Shown here: positions 11,464 through 48,294 of the stretch, in pieces
How the letters are laid out: every line of letters begins with the position of its first letter
Numbering within the stretch: the first letter of the stretch is position 1
Assembly (NCBI RefSeq): GCF_044324785.1
Contig: NZ_CP172127.1
Strand: one strand, 5' to 3'
DNA length: 64,000 nucleotides
Origin: Escherichia coli
GTDB taxonomy: Bacteria; Pseudomonadota; Gammaproteobacteria; Enterobacterales; Enterobacteriaceae
Program-made: the position numbers and the translations under genes
Notes under the pieces: model-generated
What the model was told of the DNA's origin: nothing
Database searches by the model: none
The model's input: only the letters and a program-made list of their open reading frames with translations

Positions 11464-12462
11464 ATGAAAACGTTAGGTGAATTTATTGTCGAAAAGCAGC
11501 ACGAGTTTTCTCATGCTACCGGTGAGCTCACTGCTTTGCTGTCGGCAATAAAACTGGGCGCCAAGATTATCCATCGCGATATCAACAAAGCAGGACTGGT
11601 TGATATCCTGGGTGCCAGCGGTGCTGAGAACGTGCAGGGCGAGGTTCAGCAGAAACTCGACTTGTTCGCTAATGAAAAACTGAAAGCCGCACTGAAAGCA
11701 CGCGATATCGTTGCGGGCATTGCCTCTGAAGAAGAAGATGAGATTGTCGTCTTTGAAGGCTGTGAACACGCAAAATACGTGGTGCTGATGGACCCCCTGG
11801 ATGGCTCGTCCAACATCGATGTTAACGTCTCTGTCGGTACCATTTTCTCCATCTACCGCCGCGTTACGCCTGTCGGCACGCCGGTAACGGAAGAAGATTT
11901 CCTCCAGCCTGGTAACAAACAGGTTGCGGCAGGTTACGTGGTATACGGCTCCTCTACCATGCTGGTTTACACCACCGGATGCGGTGTTCACGCCTTTACT
12001 TACGATCCTTCGCTCGGCGTTTTCTGCCTGTGCCAGGAACGGATGCGCTTCCCGGAGAAAGGCAAAACCTACTCCATCAACGAAGGAAACTACATTAAGT
12101 TTCCGAACGGGGTGAAGAAGTACATTAAATTCTGCCAGGAAGAAGATAAGTCCACCAACCGCCCTTATACCTCACGTTATATCGGTTCACTGGTCGCGGA
12201 TTTCCACCGTAACCTGCTGAAAGGCGGTATTTATCTCTACCCAAGCACCGCCAGCCACCCGGACGGTAAACTGCGTTTACTGTATGAGTGCAACCCGATG
12301 GCATTCCTGGCGGAACAAGCGGGCGGTAAAGCGAGCGATGGCAAAGAGCGTATTCTGGATATCATCCCGGAAACCCTGCACCAGCGCCGTTCGTTCTTTG
12401 TCGGCAACGACCATATGGTTGAAGATGTCGAACGCTTTATCCGTGAGTTCCCGGACGCGTAA
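11464..12462 (+). CDS. fbp: Fructose-1,6-bisphosphatase class I
   Basis: 332 aa from internal ATG ([15 protein letters not shown]...); upstream extension of ORF track rejected. Confidence 0.92.
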
Positions 12463-12470
12463 TCTCCTGC

Positions 12471-12497
12471 GCCTCTCCACACGGAGAGGCGTTTTTA
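12471..12497. terminator. Hairpin plus T-run between convergent fbp and yjfF (bidirectional terminator)
   Basis: GCCTCTCC-ACAC-GGAGAGGC followed by TTTTTAT. Confidence 0.5.
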
Positions 12498-13490
12498 TCG
12501 CTGCGCAATGTTGACTCTTGTCACAGGCGAACTCTGACGATTCTCCCACAGCACCGTTAATCCACGCTGTAATGCTATAAAAATAAACAACAAAATACCG
12601 ATGGCGATTTTCGTCCACCATGAGCTCAGCGTGCCATCAAAGTTTATGTAAGTCTGAATCAGTCCCTGAATCGCCACGCCAAAAAGCGTCCCTAATACCG
12701 TTCCAACGCCACCGCTCAAAAGCGTACCGCCAATCACCACTGAGGCGATAGCGTCCAGTTCCACACCTACGCCCGCCAGCGCATATCCGGCCTGGGTATA
12801 AATCGAGAAGACAATCCCCGCCAGCGTTGCCAGTCCGGTGGAAAGCATATAAATGCGAATAGTGGTGCTGCGAGTGGAAATCCCCATCAGGTTTGCCGAC
12901 GTTGCGTTGCCGCCAATGGCGTATACCTGATTACCAAAACGGGTACGATGCGCGAGGAATATGCCGATAACCACCACCGCCAGCATCAGCAGTCCCATCG
13001 CACTTAAGCGACCGCCGCCAGGGATTTTCCACGCAAGGCTTGAGAGCGTGTCATAAACAGGATGGTTTATCGGGATCGACTCTTCCGAAACGAGATAGCT
13101 GACGCCACGCAAAAAGAACATTCCTGCCAAAGTAATGATAAACGCCGGGATCTTCAGGGCGTCGATCAAAAGCCCCATAAATGCGCCGAAGGCACAGCCC
13201 ATCACCAGCACCAGTGGAAACGCCAGCAGCGGCGAGAGGCCGAAATCGCCAATCACTTTTGCCAGAAACACGCCGGTAAAGGCGATCACCGAACCGACGG
13301 AGAGATCGATCCCACCGGAGAGGATCACAAAGGTCATGCCAACGGCAATGATCCCAAGAAAAGCATTATCGGTCAGGATATTGCAGATCACTCTTGTGGA
13401 AGCAAAACCGGGAAACTGCGTCAGACAGTAGAGATAACCCAGCACAAAGACGCCGATGGTGATCATAAGCGGCAGGTTACGTTTTATCAC
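12495..13490 (-). CDS. yjfF: ABC transporter permease (galactofuranose/sugar family)
   Basis: 331 aa polytopic permease; GTG start; overlaps ytfT 3' end by 14 nt. Confidence 0.85.
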   Translation of the reverse strand: MIKRNLPLMITIGVFVLGYLYCLTQFPGFASTRVICNILTDNAFLGIIAVGMTFVILSGGIDLSVGSVIAFTGVFLAKVIGDFGLSPLLAFPLVLVMGCAFGAFMGLLIDALKIPAFIITLAGMFFLRGVSYLVSEESIPINHPVYDTLSSLAWKIPGGGRLSAMGLLMLAVVVIGIFLAHRTRFGNQVYAIGGNATSANLMGISTRSTTIRIYMLSTGLATLAGIVFSIYTQAGYALAGVGVELDAIASVVIGGTLLSGGVGTVLGTLFGVAIQGLIQTYINFDGTLSSWWTKIAIGILLFIFIALQRGLTVLWENRQSSPVTRVNIAQR

Positions 13491-19173: not shown

Positions 19174-24725
<5,552 letters not shown>

Positions 24726-38329: not shown

Positions 38330-38968
38330 ATGCCCGGGCGCTTTGAACTAAAACCAACCCTGGAGAAAGTCTGGCACGCGCCGGACAATTTTCGCTTCAT
38401 GGACCCGCTGCCGCCGATGCATCGTCGGGGGATCATTATTGCCGCCATTGTATTGGTGGTCGGATTTCTGCTTCCATCTGATGATACGCCCAACGCGCCG
38501 GTGGTGACGCGTGAAGCGCAGTTAGATATTCAGTCGCAATCACAACCGCCGACAGAAGAACAGCTGCGGGCGCAATTAGTCACCCCACAAAATGATCCTG
38601 ATCAGGTGGCTCCGGTCGCTCCAGAACCTATACAGGAAGGCCAGCCAGAAGAGCAGCCGCAAACCACCCAAACGCAACCATTCCAGCCAGATAGCGGAAT
38701 TGATAATCAATGGCGCTCTTACCGTGTCGAACCCGGTAAAACGATGGCGCAGCTGTTCCGCGACCACGGACTGCCCGCTACCGATGTCTATGCAATGGCG
38801 CAGGTAGAAGGCGCGGGTAAGCCGCTGAGTAATTTGCAAAACGGGCAGATGGTGAAAATCCGCCAGAACGCCAGCGGCGTGGTGACGGGCTTAACCATTG
38901 ATACGGGGAATAATCAACAGGTCCTGTTTACCCGCCAGCCGGATGGCAGTTTTATTCGTGCGCGGTAG
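38330..38968 (+). CDS. ytfB: OapA/LysM-like cell-division-associated protein
   Basis: 212 aa from internal ATG ([23 protein letters not shown]...), membrane anchor, Pro/Gln-rich linker. Confidence 0.8.
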
Positions 38969-39599
38969 ATGAAGGATCAACCAAAAGCCAGCTAAGGAGC
39001 GTCTCTTTGATGACCTTACGTCTGGCTTCCAGTGCCTGGGGGGAAACCATACTGATATGATAAACTAGGCCAAGCGTATGCTGGTTGATCAAATAATATC
39101 CCCCAAGCGCAGCAATATTAATATTCACCTGCAATGGGTCGATATCTGGCTTAAAAATATTGTGTTTCTTCCCTTCATCCAATAAGGATTCCATTAACTG
39201 CAAGTGCGCATGGTTAATTTCTAAGAGACGCTGTGATTTTGCATAATGCACACCTTTACTTTGATTTTCACTATGCACAATTTTTAAAAACCAGGGGTTA
39301 GCAATATAATAATCCCATGTAAAATCAATAATTTTCTCAATGGCTTTTTGTGGCGGAAGATCTGAGAAATCAAGGGCCTTTTCTTTTTGTCGAATATCGT
39401 TCCAGGTATATTCCAGTACTTCAATAAATAAATTTTCTTTATTACCAAAGTGATGATAAACCGTCTGTTTACTACACCCCGCAGCCTTAACAATATTATC
39501 GACCCTGGCCCCTTCATAACCATATTCGGCAAATTCATTAACCGCGCATAACAGCAGCTTTTCCTTCAGGCTCTGTACGTTGCTGGTATCAAGATACAT
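38952..39599 (-). CDS. TetR/AcrR-family transcriptional regulator, divergent from the accessory operon (possibly the intact form of K-12 ytfA)
   Basis: 215 aa from ATG at 39599; N-terminal HTH ([23 protein letters not shown]); 3' end overlaps ytfB by about 17 nt. Confidence 0.8.
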
Positions 39600-39721
39600 A
39601 ACGCTTCCCCACGACCTCTTCAAGACAACTATCTTAACCCGATTAATTAGAAGCTCCAGTAAAAAGGATAAAAACTTGTACTTTCATCAAGTTATCAAAT
39701 GTCCTGTGATCACTATCGCAT

Positions 39722-39743
39722 ATCAACCAACCAGATGGTTGAT
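39722..39743. promoter_or_regulatory. Perfect inverted repeat ATCAACCA-N6-TGGTTGAT in divergent promoter region; candidate operator of the TetR regulator
   Basis: Verified against ORF-track translation of this region; a second repeat CTTGCG-N6-CGCAAG lies at about 39748-39765. Confidence 0.4.
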
Positions 39744-39809
39744 CTTTCTTGCGGCACGTCGCAAGCTAATTGTCACTTAGAAACAATATTCAAAAAAGAG
39801 AGCTATTGT

Positions 39810-40601
39810 ATGAAATCCACTCGTCCTGTTGCCGTGATTACCGGAGCCGCTCGTGGTATTGGAAAGGGCTGTGCGCTGGAGCTTGCTCGTGGCGGATTTA
39901 ACCTGCTGATTAACGATCGCCCCGATGATGACAGCGTAGAAAAATTACATGCCACGCAACAGGAATGTCTGGCAGAAGGTGTGGAAGTGATTTGCTTCCC
40001 TGCCGATGTCGGCGATCTCTCCTTGCATGAAGAGATGCTCGACGCGGCACAAAACCAGTGGGGACGTCTGGACTGCCTGCTCAACAACGCAGGCATTTCA
40101 GTGAAAAAACGCGGTGACCTTCTCGACCTCGAACCAGACAGCTTCGACCAAAATATTGCCATTAACACCCGCGCACCGTTCTTCCTCGCTCAGGCATTCA
40201 GTAAGCGCTTACTGGCACAGCCGAAACCGGAAGCAGAACTGCCGCACCGCTCGATTATTTTTGTCAGTTCCATCAACGCCATCATGCTGGCGATGAATCG
40301 CGGCGAATATACCATTGCCAAAACTGCCGTCTCTGCCGCTGCTCGTCTGTTTGCTGCTCGGCTTTGTAATGAACAAATTGGCGTTTATGAAGTGCGTCCT
40401 GGTCTCATCAAAACCGATATGACTATTCCGGCAACGGCCTATTACGACGAACTGATTGCCAAAGGTCTGGTGCCGTGGGGACGTTGGGGTTATCCGGCTG
40501 ATATTGCTTCCACTGTCCGCGCGATGGCGGAAGGTAAACTGATTTACACCTGTGGTCAGGCGGTTGCCATTGACGGCGGCTTAAGTATGCCGCGTTTCTG
40601 A
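39810..40601 (+). CDS. Short-chain dehydrogenase/reductase (classical SDR, FabG-like)
   Basis: 263 aa; TGAARGIGKG cofactor motif, NNAG, catalytic Y-x3-K (YTIAK); RBS AAAGAGAG upstream. Confidence 0.8.
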   Translation: MKSTRPVAVITGAARGIGKGCALELARGGFNLLINDRPDDDSVEKLHATQQECLAEGVEVICFPADVGDLSLHEEMLDAAQNQWGRLDCLLNNAGISVKKRGDLLDLEPDSFDQNIAINTRAPFFLAQAFSKRLLAQPKPEAELPHRSIIFVSSINAIMLAMNRGEYTIAKTAVSAAARLFAARLCNEQIGVYEVRPGLIKTDMTIPATAYYDELIAKGLVPWGRWGYPADIASTVRAMAEGKLIYTCGQAVAIDGGLSMPRF

Positions 40602-40610
40602 GGCTGAATC

Positions 40611-41453
40611 ATGAGAGATCTGTTACAACGCCCGGATTTATTCAGTATCAATACCGCGACACTGGGCTATAAAACGCCGCTTCCCGCCATTATTGATGCC
40701 TGCGCCGCACGCGGTATTGGCGCAATTGCCCCCTGGCGCAGGGAGTTGCAGGGTGAAGATCTCCAGCAAATCGCCCGCCAGCTTGCCGCCAGTAAGATGA
40801 ACGTTTCCGGTTTGTGCCGTAGCACTTACTACACCGCGCCGACACTGGCGGAACGCAAACTGGCGATTGATGATAACCGCCGGGCGCTGGACGACGCAGC
40901 GGTGCTTAACGCCGCCTGTTATATGCAGGTGGTTGGCGGGTTACCGCAGGGAACAAAAGATTTGTACGAAGCGCGGGAACAAGTAAAACAAGGGATTCGC
41001 CAGTTGCTGCCACATTCGAAAGATGTCGGCGTGCCAATTGCGCTGGAGCCGCTGCACCCGATGACTGCTGCCGACCGCTCTTGCCTGTGCACGTTACGTC
41101 AGGCGCTGGACTGGTGTGATGAACTCGATCCCGATGGTGAGTTTGGCCTCGGCGTAGCGGTAGATGTCTACCATGTCTGGTGGGACCCGGATCTCGCCAG
41201 CCAACTCCAGCGCGCCGGAAAACGCATCCTCGCGTTTCATGTTTCCGACTGGTTAGTACCAACCACCGATCTGGTCAATGACCGTGGAATGCCGGGAGAT
41301 GGCGTCATCAATATTCCGTCAATTCGTCGGCTGGTTGAAAACGCCGGATTTAATGGCGCTATTGAACTGGAAATATTCTCGCCGTACTGGTGGCAAAAAG
41401 ATATTAACAGCACGCTGGATATTAGCGTCGATCGCATCGCGCATTATTGCTAA
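40611..41453 (+). CDS. Xylose-isomerase-like TIM-barrel enzyme (sugar-phosphate isomerase/epimerase or dehydratase superfamily)
   Basis: 280 aa; conserved metal-ligand-like positions (LEPLHP, HVSDW, ELEIFS); starts 9 nt after SDR stop. Confidence 0.75.
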   Translation: MRDLLQRPDLFSINTATLGYKTPLPAIIDACAARGIGAIAPWRRELQGEDLQQIARQLAASKMNVSGLCRSTYYTAPTLAERKLAIDDNRRALDDAAVLNAACYMQVVGGLPQGTKDLYEAREQVKQGIRQLLPHSKDVGVPIALEPLHPMTAADRSCLCTLRQALDWCDELDPDGEFGLGVAVDVYHVWWDPDLASQLQRAGKRILAFHVSDWLVPTTDLVNDRGMPGDGVINIPSIRRLVENAGFNGAIELEIFSPYWWQKDINSTLDISVDRIAHYC

Positions 41454-41462
41454 GGAATGATT

Positions 41463-42239
41463 ATGAGTGACCAACCCGTTCTGTTCAGCAGAGCGGCGGC
41501 TTCCTGCCGTCTGACATTGAACCGTGAAGATAAATGTCATGCTATTAATGAAGAGATGATTGAATCTCTCGATCATTATTTAAATGAAATTGAAAACGAC
41601 ACCACATTACGATTAGTCGAATTAACGGCAACCGGCGATAAATTCTTTTGTGCGGGCGGCGATATTAAATCGTGGTCAGCCTATTCGCCATTAGATATGG
41701 GCAGAAAATGGATTAAACGCGGTAATGACGTTTTTAATCGCCTGCGCAACTTACCCCAATTAACCGTTGCAAATCTCAACGGTCATACCATCGGCGGTGG
41801 TATTGAACTTGCTTTGTGCTGCGATATTCGTATTGCCCGTCCCGGCGCGAAATTCTCTAACCCGGAAGTGATGCTCGGCATGGTGCCTGGCTGGATGGGC
41901 ATTGAACGTGTGCTTAATCAGGTCGGTCCGGTGGTCGGTCGCCAGATGCTGATGCTGGGTAAACGCCTGACGGCGCGGGAAGCTCAGGCGGCGAATTTAA
42001 TTGATGAAGTGGTAGAAAAAGAACAGGTGGAAAGCTGGATGGCGAACCAGTTAGCGCAGCTGGAAAAATGTGGTCCGGTGGCGCTCGCACATATCAAGCA
42101 ACTGATTCTGGCACTGGAAAATAAACATGCCGATTACCCGCACCAGCTACTGGCTGGATTAATGTCCGCCACTCAGGATTGCCAGCAGGCGACGCGCGCG
42201 TTTGCCGAAAAAAGTAGCGTGAGCTTCCACAATCAATAA
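41463..42239 (+). CDS. Enoyl-CoA hydratase/isomerase (crotonase fold)
   Basis: 258 aa; oxyanion-hole segments FCAGGDIKSW and NGHTIGGGIELALCCDIRIA; start taken at second ATG, 6 nt after AAGGA. Confidence 0.8.
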   Translation: MSDQPVLFSRAAASCRLTLNREDKCHAINEEMIESLDHYLNEIENDTTLRLVELTATGDKFFCAGGDIKSWSAYSPLDMGRKWIKRGNDVFNRLRNLPQLTVANLNGHTIGGGIELALCCDIRIARPGAKFSNPEVMLGMVPGWMGIERVLNQVGPVVGRQMLMLGKRLTAREAQAANLIDEVVEKEQVESWMANQLAQLEKCGPVALAHIKQLILALENKHADYPHQLLAGLMSATQDCQQATRAFAEKSSVSFHNQ

Positions 42240-42248
42240 GGAAATTGT

Positions 42249-43790
42249 ATGCGTAAGATAACAACCGCCGAGGCACTGGCGGCGCAAATTCAGGACGGCG
42301 CAACCATTGCCATTAGCGGTAACGGCGGCGGCATGGTGGAAGCTGACCATATTATGGCCGCCATTGAAGCGCGTTTCCTGCAAACCGGACACCCTCGCGA
42401 TCTGACATTGATCCACTCGCTGGGTATTGGCGATCGCGACAGCAAAGGCACTAACCGTTTTGCTCACGCCGAAATGCTCAAACGCATTATTGCCGGACAT
42501 TTTACCTGGTCGCCCAAGATGCAGGAACTGGTGAAAAGCAATGCTATTGAAGCCTACTGTTTCCCTGGTGGCGTGATTCAGGCGTTGCTACGGGAGATCG
42601 GTGCCGGACGTCCGGGGCTTTTTACCCACGTTGGGCTGGGATCGTTTGTTGATCCACGCAATGGCGGCGGTAAGTCGAATGAATGCACTACCGACGACCT
42701 GGTAGAACTGATTGAAATCGACGGTGAGACCAAACTTCGTTATCGCCCTTTCAAAGTGGATTACGCGATTTTGCGTGGCACTTATGCCGATCCACGAGGC
42801 AACGTTAGCCTCGAAGAAGAAGCGATTGATATGGATAGCTATTCGATGGCGCTGGCAGCACACAACAGCGGTGGCAAAGTGTTCGTACAGGTACGCGATG
42901 TGCTGGAAGCAGGTGCCATTGAACCACGCCGGGTTAAATTACCGGGGATTCTGGTTGATGGCATCGTTGAACACCGCGAACAGCCACAAACCTATCTTGG
43001 CAGTTACGACCTGACCATCAGCGGCCAACATCGCCGTCTGAGTTCTAACGACGCTATTGAGCTGGTTAGTCATCCGGTGCGTCGCCTGATTGCCCGTCGG
43101 GCAGCGCGGGAACTGGTGGCAGGCGCTTCAACCAACTTTGGCTTTGGTATTCCCGGCGGCATTCCAGGAGTAGCGCTGCGCGAAGGCGTGCCTTACCAAA
43201 GTTTATGGCTGAGCGTCGAGCAAGGCGTGCATAACGGTATGATGCTGGATGATGCGTTTTTCGGCTGCGCCCGCAACGCCGATGCCATTATTCCATCACT
43301 CGATCAATTTGAGTTCTACAGTGGTGGAGGGATCGATATCACCTTCCTCGGCATGGGAGAGATGGATCAGTACGGTAACGTCAACGTATCCCATCTCAAT
43401 GGCAATCTGATTGGCCCCGGCGGATTTCTCGAAATTGCGCAAAATGCCCGTAAAGTGGTGTTCTGCGGCACGTTCGACGCTAAAGGCAGCAAAATCGATA
43501 TAACGCCAGATGGCTTGCATATCGCCCAGTCAGGTCAAATCCCTAAACTGGTTACCCAGGTGGAAAAAATCACTTTTAGCGCCGCCTACGCACAGCAAAG
43601 TGGTCAGGAAGTGTTGTATATCACTGAGCGCGCAGTATTCCAGTTAACGGCAGAAGGCGTTGAATTAATTGAAATCGCGCCGGGTGTAGAGATTGAGCGC
43701 GACATTCTGCCGTTCATGGCTTTCCGTCCAATTATCAAGCACCCACGCCTGATGGAAAGTAGCCTGTTTACGCCGATGGAGGATGCATGA
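42249..43790 (+). CDS. Family-I CoA-transferase, fused alpha/beta subunits (YdiF / propionate-CoA-transferase-like)
   Basis: 513 aa; N-terminal ISGNGGG and later SGGGIDITFLGMGEMDQYGNVNVS segments typical of 3-oxoacid CoA-transferases. Confidence 0.75.
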   Translation: MRKITTAEALAAQIQDGATIAISGNGGGMVEADHIMAAIEARFLQTGHPRDLTLIHSLGIGDRDSKGTNRFAHAEMLKRIIAGHFTWSPKMQELVKSNAIEAYCFPGGVIQALLREIGAGRPGLFTHVGLGSFVDPRNGGGKSNECTTDDLVELIEIDGETKLRYRPFKVDYAILRGTYADPRGNVSLEEEAIDMDSYSMALAAHNSGGKVFVQVRDVLEAGAIEPRRVKLPGILVDGIVEHREQPQTYLGSYDLTISGQHRRLSSNDAIELVSHPVRRLIARRAARELVAGASTNFGFGIPGGIPGVALREGVPYQSLWLSVEQGVHNGMMLDDAFFGCARNADAIIPSLDQFEFYSGGGIDITFLGMGEMDQYGNVNVSHLNGNLIGPGGFLEIAQNARKVVFCGTFDAKGSKIDITPDGLHIAQSGQIPKLVTQVEKITFSAAYAQQSGQEVLYITERAVFQLTAEGVELIEIAPGVEIERDILPFMAFRPIIKHPRLMESSLFTPMEDA

Positions 43791-45859
43791 GTCAGCTTGA
43801 TGACACCATCCTTGATGCGCTGACGCACGTCACTTTCCCAAAGGGGTTTGTGTCAGCAGAGCCAACGTCAATTGTCACCGTTGAGGATGTTGATTACCCG
43901 ATCTGGCAAGTTGATGCGCTGGTCGTTGGTAGCGGCGCAGCAGGATTACGTGCGGCAGTTGAACTTAAACGCCGCCAGCAAAATGTGCTGATCGCCACCG
44001 CCGGGTTATATATGGGGACGTCGGCATGTTCTGGTTCCGATAAACAGACGTTGTTTACCGCCGCTACCGCGGGCAACGGCGACAACTTCGCCAAACTGGC
44101 AGAGGCACTTGCGAGCGGTGGGGCGATGGATCACGACACCGCTTATGTCGAAGCGGTAGGTTCTCTGCACACTCTTGGCGGGTTGCAATATCTTGGTCTG
44201 GAATTACCGGAAGATCGCTATGGCGCGATTCTTCGTTATCAAACCGACCATGACGAAGCCGGGCGTGCAACCTCGTGTGGGCCGCGTACCTCAAGGTTAA
44301 TGGTGAAAGTGCTGCTGGAAGAAGTACAGCGTCTTGCTATCCCAATGTTGACCAGTGCAACAGTGATTAAACTGCTGCATCAGCGTGACGAAAACGGCGA
44401 AGACCGCGTGGCGGGGGCTATCCTCGCGACCGGTCATCGCGCCCATAACCCATGGGGGCTGGCAATTGTGATTGCGCCCAATGTGGTACTGGCAACAGGA
44501 GGGCCTGGCGAGCTTTATCGCGACAGTGTGTACCCACACAAATGTTTCGGCTCGCTGGGTCTGGCGCTGGAGGAAGGTCTGACGCTAACGAATCTGACTG
44601 AAAGCCAGTTTGGTATAGGCACACCGCGCAGCACGTTTCCGTGGAATTTGTCCGGGACTTATGTACAGGTGATCCCATATATCTATTCCGTGGATGCTGA
44701 GGGTAACGAGTATAACTTCCTCGCGGATTACTATCGCACCACCCAGGAGCTGGCTTCAAACATTTTCCGTAAAGGCTATCAGTGGCCGTTCCACGCCACT
44801 CGGGTGATGGATTTTGGCTCCAGCTTGTTAGATATGGCAGTAGCGCAAGAGCAGCAATCAGGGCGTCAGGTATTTATGGATTTCAATCGCAATCCTGAAG
44901 CGGTGCCGGGTGACCTGCCCTTCTCATTAGATCGACTGGACGACGACGTTCGCGCGTATCTGGAAAATAACGACGCTCTGGCACCATCGCCCATCGAACG
45001 GCTGCAACGAATGAATCCGCTGTCTATCTCGCTGTATAAGATGCACGGTTACGATCTCACCACACAGCCATTGCAGTTTGCCATGAATAATCAGCATATG
45101 AATGGCGGCATTGAAGTCGATATCTGGGGACAAACATCTCTACCCGGTTGTTTTGCAGTGGGGGAAGTTGCTGGCACACACGGCGTCACCCGACCTGGCG
45201 GCGCGGCATTGAATGCCGGGCAGGTTTTTGCTGTTCGTCTGGCACGTTTTATTGGTTGCACGCAAAAGCGGAATATTGATGGAGATATAGCACAGCTGGC
45301 AGCTCCGGCACTGGCTTCTATAAGAGAGATCATTACTCAGGCGCACGATAACGGGACCGGGATGCCGTTGTCGGTTGTGAGAGAAAAAATTCAGGCACGA
45401 ATGTCTGACCATGCGGGATTTATTTGTCATGCCGATAAAGTCCGACGCGCCACTCGTGATGCCCTGCTATTGAACGAATTTGTCCAACGGCATGGATTGG
45501 CAATCAAACATGTGGGTGAAGTTTCCGAGCTGTTTATGTGGCGGCATATGGCGCTGACTTCTGCCGCGGTATTAACACAATTAACGCATTATATTGATGC
45601 TGGTGGCGGCAGTCGTGGGGCGCGGATGGTTATTGATCCACAAGGCAAATGCCTACCACAAACTCGTCGCGGCGTAAAAGAAGAATGGCGTTTTCGCTCT
45701 GAACTCGCTGAAGATAAAAATCACAAATTAACAATTCAATATTCGCAAGGTTCTTTTATTACCGAAGTAAAGTCTTTACGTATGCAACCGTGTATTAACG
45801 GTATTTACTTTGAAAAAAACTGGCCAGACTTTTTAAAGGGAGACATTTACACACAATAA
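43787..45859 (+). CDS. FAD-binding oxidoreductase of the fumarate-reductase/succinate-dehydrogenase flavoprotein superfamily
   Basis: 690 aa; dinucleotide fold VVGSGAAGLRAA, later GEVAGTHGVTRPGGAALNAGQVFAVRLARF; ATGA overlap with upstream gene. Confidence 0.75.
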   Translation: MSQLDDTILDALTHVTFPKGFVSAEPTSIVTVEDVDYPIWQVDALVVGSGAAGLRAAVELKRRQQNVLIATAGLYMGTSACSGSDKQTLFTAATAGNGDNFAKLAEALASGGAMDHDTAYVEAVGSLHTLGGLQYLGLELPEDRYGAILRYQTDHDEAGRATSCGPRTSRLMVKVLLEEVQRLAIPMLTSATVIKLLHQRDENGEDRVAGAILATGHRAHNPWGLAIVIAPNVVLATGGPGELYRDSVYPHKCFGSLGLALEEGLTLTNLTESQFGIGTPRSTFPWNLSGTYVQVIPYIYSVDAEGNEYNFLADYYRTTQELASNIFRKGYQWPFHATRVMDFGSSLLDMAVAQEQQSGRQVFMDFNRNPEAVPGDLPFSLDRLDDDVRAYLENNDALAPSPIERLQRMNPLSISLYKMHGYDLTTQPLQFAMNNQHMNGGIEVDIWGQTSLPGCFAVGEVAGTHGVTRPGGAALNAGQVFAVRLARFIGCTQKRNIDGDIAQLAAPALASIREIITQAHDNGTGMPLSVVREKIQARMSDHAGFICHADKVRRATRDALLLNEFVQRHGLAIKHVGEVSELFMWRHMALTSAAVLTQLTHYIDAGGGSRGARMVIDPQGKCLPQTRRGVKEEWRFRSELAEDKNHKLTIQYSQGSFITEVKSLRMQPCINGIYFEKNWPDFLKGDIYTQ

Positions 45860-45951
45860 TTTTCAATATTTCCTCTGTACCTGATTTTTATTGCCTATTA
45901 CATGGAAATACCAACAACCAGGGTTTATTAATATAATTAAAAGGTTTAAAA

Positions 45952-47229
45952 ATGAATAAAATAAAGAATTATCGATGGCATATGATTGCCCTCGTATGCT
46001 TTATCACTGTAATCAATTATCTGGACAGAACGGCGTTAGGTATTGCGGCTCCAACGATTATGGAGACAACCGGAATAACTAAAGAGCAATATTCATGGAT
46101 TGTCAGTGCATTCCAGTTGGCCTATACATTAGGGCAACCGGTAATGGGCTTCTTTATTGATACCGTGGGTCTGAAGTTAAGTTTTGCGATATGTGCCGCA
46201 ATTTGGGGCCTGGCGACAATGGGCCATGCACTAACCGGAACGTGGTCTGGTCTGGCATTTATGCGCGCCCTGATGGGTTTCAGCGAAGCGTCGGCAATTC
46301 CGGCGGGTGTAAAAACCGCATCAACATGGTTCCCGGCAAAAGAGCGTGGCGTGGCGACAGGTGTTTTCAATATGGGCACCTCACTCGGCGCGATGCTTGC
46401 TCCACCGTTGATTGCCTGGTGCATTATGTTTCATAGCTGGCAATTTGCGTTTATTGTTTCAGGTAGCCTTGCTTTGCTCGCGGCTTTATTTTGGTTCTTT
46501 TGTTATAAAGATCCGAAAGATGCCAAACGCCTTTCTGATGAAGAGCGCCACTATATTGAATCAGGGCAAGAACAGCATCTTAAAACAGATAAGAAAGAAA
46601 AAACGTCAATCAAGCATATCCTCAGCCAACGTAATTTCTGGGGGATTGGCATCGCGCGTTTTCTCGCAGACCCGGCATGGGGAACCATTAACTTCTGGGT
46701 GCCGATTTTCTTCGTCGAAACGCTGCATTTTAGCCTGAAAGAAATTGCCATGTTCGTCTGGCTGCCTTTCCTGCTGGGCGATCTCGGCTGTTTAGCCAGT
46801 GGTTTTGTCGCGAAGTTCTTCCACGATCGCGGCGTGAGTTTAATTAACTCACGAAGAATTACCTTCACTATTGCAGCCGTCATTATGATGACGATTGGCC
46901 TGGTGAGTATTGTCGAAAATCCCTACATTGCCGTATTACTGATTAGTATTGGCGCGTTCTCGCATCAATGTCTTTCTACTGTAGCAGCAACTCTGGGTGG
47001 CGATCTGTTCAAAAAAGACGAAGTAGCTACCGCAGTGGGTATGGCAGGAGCCTGTGCGTGGAGCGGTCAGTTGATTTTCAACCTGTTCATCGGGGCATTC
47101 GTTCACATTATCGGCTTCGCGCCGTTCTTTATTGCCCTGGCTTTCTTTGACATTATTGGTGCTATTGCGTTGTGGACGCTTATCAAAGTTAAAGATGAAG
47201 AACCGCAAGTACAGCTAGCTACCCATTAA
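45952..47229 (+). CDS. MFS transporter, anion:cation symporter (ACS) family, ExuT/DgoT-like
   Basis: 425 aa; N-terminus NYRWHMIALVCFITVINYLDRTALGIAAPTIME and FPAKERG loop resemble hexuronate/aldonate transporters. Confidence 0.85.
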   Translation: MNKIKNYRWHMIALVCFITVINYLDRTALGIAAPTIMETTGITKEQYSWIVSAFQLAYTLGQPVMGFFIDTVGLKLSFAICAAIWGLATMGHALTGTWSGLAFMRALMGFSEASAIPAGVKTASTWFPAKERGVATGVFNMGTSLGAMLAPPLIAWCIMFHSWQFAFIVSGSLALLAALFWFFCYKDPKDAKRLSDEERHYIESGQEQHLKTDKKEKTSIKHILSQRNFWGIGIARFLADPAWGTINFWVPIFFVETLHFSLKEIAMFVWLPFLLGDLGCLASGFVAKFFHDRGVSLINSRRITFTIAAVIMMTIGLVSIVENPYIAVLLISIGAFSHQCLSTVAATLGGDLFKKDEVATAVGMAGACAWSGQLIFNLFIGAFVHIIGFAPFFIALAFFDIIGAIALWTLIKVKDEEPQVQLATH

Positions 47230-47242
47230 TTATTTTAAATAA

Positions 47243-47272
47243 AAACGCTATAATTGAGGTTATGGCGTTTTT
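47243..47272 (+). terminator. Probable rho-independent terminator after the MFS transporter gene
   Basis: AAACGCTATAA...TTATGGCGTTT stem (one G-U pair) followed by T-run. Confidence 0.4.
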
Positions 47273-47499
47273 AAAGAAGCTTGAGTTATCGAACCTCGCT
47301 TACCAACGCGTTGTCAATCATATCCCCCCTCCCTGCTGCATCGTTATATCCACAATGAGCGATTTTTGATATTAATATCTTTCACCATCCGCTATTTTCA
47401 CTACTTCAGAAAACAAACTTATTTTTATTAATATCGATTCTTTATTCTGTAAACATTCAGCTGAGATATTTATAAAAACATTAAACAGGCAACGATACA

Positions 47500-48294
47500 A
47501 TGACATTACCAACCACTATTTATTCATTTCCTGCATATTCACCCCGTTTTTCGTCCACCGACAAACCAGTAAAATTAAAATTTCATCAATACGCACGCGC
47601 TACATTACTTTCAAATCGTGGAAGAGATCATAATTGCGATGGCAGACATACTGTTGAGATCCACAAACTAGATCTCTCAGACTGGCAAGCATTCAATAAA
47701 CTAGCGATGGCGTGTAATGCTTACGATGGAATAACAATGAATGGTGATAATTCTTTTGGATGGAACCATGAAGCTACATTAGATAATATTCACGCCCAGA
47801 AATACAATAAAGCTTACGCGGGTGCGAGGTTAACCGCAGAACTGAAATATTTATTGCAAGATGTCGAATCCTTCGAACCCAACAGTAAATACACAATACA
47901 CGAGGTTGTTTTGGGTCCAGGTTATGGTACTCCAGACTATACCGGCCAAACGATAGGATACGTTGTAACCCTTCCTGCCCAAATGCCTAATTGCTGGTCA
48001 TCTGAACTACCAACAATCGATCTTTATATCGACCAACTTCGCACTGTTACAGGCGTTTCTAATGCCCTCGGATTCATCATTGCTGCATTGCTAAACGCGT
48101 ATTCTGATTTACCCCATGATTTGAAAATTGGTCTGCGTTCCTTATCAAGTTCAGCAGCAATCTACTCGGGTTTGGGTTTCGAGCGAGTGCCGCAGGGCCG
48201 AGACATAAGGTGCGATCATATGCATCTAACGCCAGCAAACCATCCTGAATTATGGACACAAGAGAATGGTGAATGGATCTACTTGCGAAACTAA
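47500..48294 (+). CDS. yjfZ: Uncharacterised DUF2686-like protein YjfZ (AT-rich gene)
   Basis: 264 aa, no motifs recognised, preceded by 270-bp AT-rich spacer; position next to rplI matches yjfZ. Confidence 0.7.
   Translation: MTLPTTIYSFPAYSPRFSSTDKPVKLKFHQYARATLLSNRGRDHNCDGRHTVEIHKLDLSDWQAFNKLAMACNAYDGITMNGDNSFGWNHEATLDNIHAQKYNKAYAGARLTAELKYLLQDVESFEPNSKYTIHEVVLGPGYGTPDYTGQTIGYVVTLPAQMPNCWSSELPTIDLYIDQLRTVTGVSNALGFIIAALLNAYSDLPHDLKIGLRSLSSSAAIYSGLGFERVPQGRDIRCDHMHLTPANHPELWTQENGEWIYLRN

Follow-up and report, generated by a model that had tools for sequence, protein, structure and literature searches.

A YdiF/Pct-type CoA-transferase gene overlapping the gene of a divergent flavoprotein in an Escherichia coli operon absent from K-12

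We examined a 64,000-nucleotide stretch of DNA from Escherichia coli (NCBI RefSeq assembly GCF_044324785.1, contig NZ_CP172127.1), which is called the window in this report. The open reading frame (ORF) at 42249-43790 of the window is, as judged from its sequence, a catalytically competent-looking single-chain family-I CoA-transferase with a predicted active-site glutamate, Glu324. It is the fourth gene of a six-gene operon that lies next to a divergent gene for a TetR-family regulator, and its last nucleotides are shared with the gene for a flavin adenine dinucleotide (FAD) flavoprotein. We consider it probable that this YdiF/Pct-type enzyme belongs to a TetR-controlled pathway, in which a short carboxylate, once imported, would be activated by it ahead of hydratase and redox steps, and that the overlap of the two genes is a matter of ordinary coupling. 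An original prediction, made from the letters of the DNA, had taken the overlap to imply stoichiometric co-expression and perhaps substrate channelling between the two proteins.

A single-chain family-I CoA-transferase

Both halves of a family-I transferase were found in the single chain. Pfam PF01144 matched residues 5-241 in the N half, the NCBIfam models pcaI/scoA and pcaJ/scoB matched residues 4-244 and 278-483, respectively, and solved A and B subunits gave separate matches to the N and C halves. Residues 6-508 aligned with residues 17-518 of YdiF (PDB 2ahu; E 5.3e-115), and BLASTP gave 40% identity to K-12 YdiF over 508 columns. The two half-domain matches and the end-to-end alignment support the earlier description of the ORF as a fused family-I CoA-transferase of the YdiF/Pct type. 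The gene has an AAGGA site of its own, and its start lies 9 nt past the stop of the preceding gene.

YdiF is a short-chain CoA-transferase that passes CoA to acetate and lactate in vitro and carries the motifs EXGXXG and GXGGF (PMC9636275), and the family-I mechanism is a ping-pong reaction via a glutamyl-CoA thioester (PMC3180442). The catalytic glutamate, which the original prediction had proposed to locate by alignment with YdiF and whose absence it had named as a refutation, was present. E333 of YdiF (in LTVETG) aligned with E324 (in LSVEQG), as did the SENG glutamate of pig SCOT, and E324 and the GPGGF motif were invariant in 14 transferases from two subgroups. Against the equivalog model for staphylococcal FadX (NCBIfam NF052271), the protein scored 385 bits with a cut-off of 750, which makes it a relative of FadX and not an equivalog. 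The orthologue is named "acyl CoA:acetate/3-ketoacid CoA transferase" in RefSeq. The transferase is, therefore, a recognizable YdiF paralogue that has already been named correctly, and it adds little by itself.

The junction with the flavoprotein gene

The junction was read directly from the DNA. Positions 43778-43790 are GGAGGATGCATGA, and the transferase and flavoprotein genes share the 4 nt ATGA at 43787-43790, as the original prediction had stated. A GGAGG sequence sits 4 nt 5' of the flavoprotein ATG, inside the end of the transferase gene. Both the ATGA and the GGAGG were kept in eight orthologous loci; the species in which they are conserved include E. coli, E. whittamii, E. albertii and Escherichia sp. 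MOD1. The gene calls of Klebsiella oxytoca and Salmonella have the identical 4-nt overlap, and in Entomohabitans the two genes overlap by 14 nt. Since the ATGA overlap and the GGAGG are conserved across three genera, co-translation is a reasonable inference, and translational coupling of the transferase and the flavoprotein is a plausible prediction. An RNA fold of 43730-43840 (-33.6 kcal/mol, z -2.4) paired GGAGGAU with AUCCUU of flavoprotein codons 8-9, and this pairing was possible in all eight orthologues, via invariance or wobble alone. ATGA overlaps are common operon punctuation. Two other same-strand overlaps were seen in the window, an ATGA of 4 nt between tamA and tamB (22950-22953) and a single nucleotide between ulaE and ulaF (51221).

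Two other accounts of the junction were weighed. One is that the overlap is a start-codon artefact, with the flavoprotein truly beginning downstream and the two genes not overlapping. There is a GTG at codon 22, the next in-frame start, which could serve such a protein, but its use would lose residues 5-21, and these are conserved over 46 family members from many phyla, including an invariant P18. The GGAGG lies 4 nt in front of the ATG at 43787, and RefSeq and the Klebsiella and Salmonella gene calls all choose this same start. An artefact of this kind is thus very improbable. No in-frame start was found 5' of 43787 either, in this locus or in six orthologous loci, and the overlap is not removed from that side, which had been named beforehand as an outcome that would speak against it. 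The other account is that the overlap reflects a transferase-flavoprotein complex of fixed stoichiometry, which would channel acyl-CoA from the activation step to the redox step. The conservation of the 4-nt overlap and the ribosome-binding site (RBS) in Escherichia, Klebsiella and Salmonella would fit with such a complex, as would the longer overlap in Entomohabitans, and in K-12 ydiF likewise precedes a flavoprotein gene, ydiO, at a 13-nt gap. However, the transferase-then-flavoprotein order is limited to Enterobacteriaceae. In the approximately 13 distant loci where a homologous transferase accompanies the flavoprotein family (Raoultella and Bradyrhizobium, for example), it is the hydratase gene with which the transferase gene shares 4 nt, and the flavoprotein gene lies apart from the transferase gene or is divergent from it. 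This change of overlap partner suggests operon compaction rather than a complex of the transferase with the flavoprotein. All junctions up to this one in the operon are close, with gaps of 9, 3 and 9 nt before the overlap. ATGA overlaps also occur between unrelated neighbours within the window, and the sole joined proteins, P0006 and P0029, are internal-deletion products that lack essential parts of one partner. We regard a channelling complex as quite unlikely.

P0006 (1078 aa) and P0029 (1043 aa), both from E. coli and both with CoA_trans and FAD_binding_2 domains, were considered as natural fusions and rejected, as they are in-frame internal deletions. In them, transferase residues 1-386 or 1-~455 are joined to the flavoprotein from residue 3 or ~92. 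As internal deletions, they point to decay of the locus in some strains and are not evidence of interaction.

The ATGA overlap is a standard operon design that would give ordinary translational coupling, and alone it is no sign of a complex or of channelling. The expectation of stoichiometric co-expression, therefore, holds in part: co-translation is reasonable given the conserved overlap and GGAGG, and the further step to a stoichiometric complex is unsupported. Substrate channelling is not borne out, given how routine such overlaps are and how the genes are arranged elsewhere.

A divergent branch of the FrdA/SdhA superfamily

The flavoprotein is a distant relative of FrdA, SdhA and NadB. The single sequence reached these proteins with phmmer at an E of about 1e-9, and a family profile matched SdhA, FrdA and NadB PDB chains at E 1e-27 to 1e-20. 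An AF2 model had a pLDDT (predicted local distance difference test) of 83 and a pTM (predicted template modelling score) of 0.89. Foldseek placed this model on FrdA and SdhA at E 1e-27, with TM (template modelling) scores of 0.6-0.79 at 14-19% identity, and it has the FAD, capping and helical domains of the FrdA type. All NCBIfam equivalog scores were far under their cut-offs.

Site residues were compared with those of NadB. The invariant H437 and R469 are the equivalents of NadB H351 and R386, the His/Arg pair that binds carboxylate in FrdA and NadB. NQFHPT of NadB is replaced by SQFGIG, in which G276 is invariant. Neither the RGEGG motif with its catalytic Arg nor the His for covalent FAD was found in the flavoprotein, which reads TSACSGSD at the latter place. 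Of a complete dicarboxylate site, only H437 and R469 are retained. The flavoprotein thus represents a widespread uncharacterized branch of the FrdA/SdhA superfamily that is without half of the dicarboxylate site, and it is the most unusual part of the operon.

The family comprises 603 cluster representatives at E <= 1e-30 and spans Proteobacteria, Planctomycetota, Lentisphaerota and Verrucomicrobiota. Homologues of ~55% identity were found in Rhizobium, Agrobacterium, Bradyrhizobium, Rhodobacterales, Accumulibacter, Planctomycetota, Lentisphaerota and Puniceicoccaceae. Genes that commonly adjoin those of the family encode Gfo/Idh/MocA proteins related to levoglucosan dehydrogenase, the same TIM-barrel protein and short-chain dehydrogenase/reductase (SDR) as in this operon, GMC oxidoreductases, CUT1 ABC transporters, LacI regulators, and either a PfkB protein resembling 2-keto-3-deoxygluconate (KDG) kinase or a DhaK. 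About 13 of 80 loci, from Raoultella, Pantoea, Bradyrhizobium, Rhodobacterales and others, had a homologous transferase (38-41% identity) and a hydratase beside the flavoprotein, and an aldehyde dehydrogenase was often present as well.

Two members of the family have a flavin mononucleotide (FMN) protein close at hand. The Raoultella operon (L089) encodes a transferase, a hydratase, a major facilitator superfamily (MFS) transporter, the flavoprotein and a flavodoxin, with the flavodoxin gene (12134-12637) directly after the flavoprotein gene. In the second case, the family member P0150 (L094, 8001-11255) is fused to an FMN domain like that of Old Yellow Enzyme (OYE) and is encoded between TIM-barrel and SDR genes. 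According to a preprint on NADH-dependent FAD_binding_2 reductases of unsaturated acids, the known enzymes have an OYE-like domain too (bioRxiv 10.1101/2022.01.20.477176). By analogy, the flavodoxin neighbour and the OYE-like fusion suggest an FMN-based electron donor and a reductive role for the flavoprotein.

The operon and its regulator

The features of the locus are collected in Table 1. The order of the operon genes is SDR, TIM-barrel protein, enoyl-CoA hydratase, CoA-transferase, flavoprotein and MFS transporter, with gaps of 9, 3, 9, -4 and 92 nt between them; in this series the transferase/flavoprotein junction is the negative value.

Table 1. Features of the transferase operon and its surroundings (positions in the window)
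Feature	Position	Strand	Basis and details
TetR/AcrR-family regulator, divergent from the operon; full-length form of K-12 pseudogene ytfA	38952-39599	-	NCBIfam TetR-type matches
Segment missing in E. coli K-12 MG1655, covering all six operon genes and the 5' part of the TetR gene	39355-47330		7976 bp; blastn
Perfect palindrome ATCAACCA-N6-TGGTTGAT (8-nt inverted repeat) between the TetR and SDR genes; candidate TetR operator	39722-39743		Repeat search
SDR (FabG-like), first operon gene	39810-40601	+	Pfam adh_short_C2 6.6e-42; NCBIfam PRK12745 420 bits, above cut-off
Xylose-isomerase-like TIM-barrel protein (sugar phosphate isomerase/epimerase family)	40611-41453	+	Pfam AP_endonuc_2 1.4e-37
Crotonase-type enoyl-CoA hydratase/dehydratase, catalytic E117 and E137	41463-42239	+	Pfam ECH_1 3.8e-44
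CoA-transferase, single-chain family-I YdiF/Pct type	42249-43790	+	513 aa, ATG start; ORF listing, Pfam, NCBIfam, YdiF alignment
Predicted catalytic Glu324 codon (GAG), motif VEQGVHNG	43218-43220	+	Aligned to YdiF Glu333 and pig SCOT Glu
GPGGF motif, residues 389-393 (GXGGF signature of the Pct/YdiF type)	43413-43427	+	Motif named in PMC9636275
Predicted coupling junction: GGAGG 43778-43782, flavoprotein ATG 43787-43789, transferase TGA 43788-43790	43778-43790	+	Read from DNA
FAD flavoprotein, stand-alone, 690 aa, divergent FrdA/SdhA/NadB superfamily branch	43787-45859	+	Pfam FAD_binding_2
MFS transporter, anion:cation symporter type (D-galactonate transporter subfamily), last operon gene	45952-47229	+	Pfam MFS_1

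The TetR gene is further supported by the RefSeq annotation of the 98%-identical locus of E. coli N3 and by Pfam TetR_N and TetR_C_29 matches in the Klebsiella and Salmonella orthologues. Exact copies of the palindrome between the regulator and the first operon gene occupy the corresponding position in E. coli N3, E. whittamii, E. coli SCPM, Entomohabitans and Salmonella, and it is likely the TetR operator, as predicted from the repeat and its copies. A scan of 38900-47600 for promoters and terminators gave fewer promoter-like sites than shuffled sequences did and no convincing terminator.

The SDR has the GxxxGxG and YxxxK motifs. Its true start is likely 39810, which is the RefSeq start and has AAGAGAG upstream; the mechanical ORF start at 39699 is over-extended through the promoter/operator region. 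For the TIM-barrel protein, the closest solved structures, 3qc0 and 3ju2 (SMc04130) at E 7e-85 and also 7vpf, are uncharacterized, and literature searches on 7VPF, 3JU2, 3QC0 and SMc04130 returned chance matches only. The best solved relative of the crotonase is a 3-hydroxypropionyl-CoA dehydratase (5zai, E 2.5e-40), and the GGGIE and PEVMLG sequences of the crotonase fall on the catalytic motifs of that enzyme. The MFS transporter scored 315 bits against NCBIfam TIGR00893, below the cut-off of 395.

Distribution and allelic variation

Of 5426 complete E. coli genomes, 3126 carry the transferase gene. All seven genes, the TetR gene and the six of the operon, are at the same site in E. coli N3, K. 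oxytoca and Salmonella, and in the latter two they lie between ytfB and the rplI region. When K-12 4424000-4433000 was compared with the window by blastn, homology ended at 39354, inside the TetR gene, and restarted at 47331. In K-12, only the ytfA pseudogene, a truncated TetR gene, is annotated between ytfB and yjfZ. The flanks in the window are 98% identical to K-12, and the window is E. coli chromosome. O157 Sakai is also without the operon and has IS609 at the site. The operon thus resides at an old enterobacterial site in the chromosome, between ytfB and yjfZ, from which K-12 has lost it. Because it is missing from both K-12 and O157 Sakai, model strains have never reported on it.

The operon DNA matches that of E. 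coli N3 with 100% identity on either side of a divergent stretch (42750-45750), which takes in the 3' portion of the transferase gene together with most of the flavoprotein gene. The lowest identity, 72%, was over flavoprotein residues ~488-571 (45250-45500), and other E. coli flavoprotein alleles differ again over the last ~80 residues. From these sequences, the pattern of transferase and flavoprotein alleles looks like a recombination mosaic.

Proposed pathway and alternatives

In the pathway that we consider probable, the MFS transporter would import a short hydroxy- or unsaturated carboxylate. The CoA donor of the transferase would be acetyl-CoA or the CoA ester that the pathway itself yields, and the enzyme would transfer this CoA onto the imported carboxylate in a ping-pong reaction via a Glu324-CoA thioester. 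The crotonase would hydrate or dehydrate the resulting CoA ester, and the SDR and the flavoprotein would carry out redox steps. Ribosomes ending the transferase would start the flavoprotein at the ATGA/GGAGG junction, which would tie the two expression levels together. By analogy, the logic of such a pathway resembles that of the carnitine (CaiB/CaiD/CaiA) and acrylate (Pct) pathways, with non-homologous parts. Several substrates were weighed, namely 3-hydroxypropionate/acrylate, quinate/shikimate, malate to fumaryl-CoA and deoxy-sugar acids. There was no discriminating evidence among them and none is claimed.

A number of observations count against this proposal. The Glu motif of the transferase, EQGVHNG, departs at position 6 from the published EXGXXG (PMC9636275); Asn stands at position 6 and Gly follows at position 7, fitting EXGXXXG, and the second transferase subgroup reads EQGAVGG. 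The TIM-barrel protein has no explained role in the proposed steps. The direction of the flavoprotein reaction is indicated indirectly, by the two hints of the flavodoxin gene and the OYE-like fusion. There was no covariation behind the RBS-sequestering hairpin in the eight orthologues, for which the covariation term was positive. No paper on the operon was found by full-text literature searches with ytfA/yjfZ, the product names and the alpha-proteobacterial partner set. Finally, most loci of the flavoprotein family have sugar-type partners and no transferase within 7 kb, and the flavoprotein tree follows taxonomy and not the presence of a transferase. A separate clade of transferase-linked flavoproteins, which would suggest specificity for CoA esters, was looked for and rejected, since linked and unlinked members are intermixed in the tree.

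The sugar-type partners at most loci mean that the flavoprotein may act on a free sugar-derived acid and not on a CoA ester. According to this alternative, its substrate is a free sugar-derived carboxylate or enone, and the transferase and hydratase form a separate module that shares the operon. In most taxa, the core around the flavoprotein is a TIM-barrel protein with an SDR and/or a Gfo/Idh/MocA protein under LacI, without a transferase. The intermixing in the tree and the retention of the carboxylate-binding His/Arg pair of FrdA and NadB also favour a free acid. On the other hand, several unrelated lineages have the transferase and hydratase next to the flavoprotein, and the minimal Raoultella operon has only those two, the MFS transporter, the flavoprotein and the flavodoxin. 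With this gene set, the flavoprotein is the only redox enzyme there for a CoA-ester pathway. We see a free-acid substrate as possible, although doubtful. It is less probable still, and we would call it unlikely, that in a CoA-dependent pathway this FrdA/SdhA branch, without the thioester-facing half of the dicarboxylate site, reduces or desaturates the acyl-CoA formed by the transferase and the crotonase. A last alternative concerns the transferase itself, which might not transfer CoA but act as a hydrolase or open a ring, in the manner of the IpdAB-type family-I homologues without a catalytic Glu. Enzymes with the family-I fold have taken on reactions other than CoA transfer, as IpdAB has in steroid degradation, and an SDR and a crotonase adjoin the gene here as they do in the IpdAB system. 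However, the protein has both the catalytic Glu and the GXGGF motif, which are invariant among the homologues compared, and the closest relative, YdiF, is a genuine transferase. This role is highly improbable, and the YdiF/Pct-type activating enzyme of the proposed pathway is the reading that we prefer.

The setting of the transferase outweighs the transferase itself, as more than half of the complete E. coli genomes carry the operon, and K. oxytoca and some Salmonella have it too. If the inducer of the TetR regulator or the transferase's substrate were identified, the whole flavoprotein family would gain a function, and a strain-variable metabolic trait of gut Enterobacteriaceae could come to light. 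Should a CoA ester prove to be the substrate of the flavoprotein, this protein would be the first enzyme of the FrdA type with such a substrate, and operon-positive E. coli, Klebsiella and Salmonella would have a Cai-like use of a diet- or host-derived hydroxy acid.

Comparison with known systems

The nearest known protein is YdiF (PDB 2AHU/2AHV/2AHW). Like the transferase described here, it is a single-chain alpha+beta fusion, and the catalytic Glu and GXGGF are common to both. It differs in its Glu motif, ETGPIGG compared with EQGVHNG, and it is a paralogue from a different chromosomal site and operon. In K-12, ydiF is followed by ydiO at the 13-nt gap (L091, 7588-10348), a transferase-then-flavoprotein layout that parallels the operon here. 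However, the ydiO product is of the acyl-CoA-dehydrogenase type and is unrelated to the FrdA/SdhA-fold flavoprotein. Ahead of ydiF, K-12 has the quinate/shikimate genes ydiB and aroD.

Pct of the acrylate pathway (Clostridium propionicum, Megasphaera) is assigned to the same subfamily as the transferase, with comparable motifs (PMC9636275). The logic of the two pathways is possibly alike: a hydroxy acid would be activated, dehydrated and reduced, and CoA would be recycled. Unlike the acrylate pathway, the operon encodes no lactoyl-CoA dehydratase and no acryloyl-CoA reductase dependent on electron-transferring flavoprotein; its dehydratase is a crotonase, and its candidate reductase is FrdA-like.

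In the carnitine pathway of E. coli, CaiB, CaiD and CaiA are a CoA-transferase, a crotonase-type dehydratase and a flavoprotein reductase, and CoA is recycled from product to substrate. CaiB belongs to family III and CaiA has the acyl-CoA-dehydrogenase fold. Neither is homologous to the proteins described here, and the likeness is one of analogy only.

For the flavoprotein, the known systems are fumarate reductase, urocanate reductase, the acrylate reductase ARD of Vibrio harveyi and the cinnamate reductase of Vibrio ruber, with which it shares the superfamily fold. Compared with these FAD_binding_2 reductases, it has kept the carboxylate-binding His and Arg of the FAD domain (H437 and R469). 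The OYE-like FMN domain that the reductases carry, according to the preprint cited above, is also found in one member of the flavoprotein family. The differences are an identity of 14-19%, QFGIG in place of QFHPT, the absence of RGEGG and of an FMN_bind domain, an extra C-terminal beta domain, and gene neighbours of both the sugar type and the CoA type.

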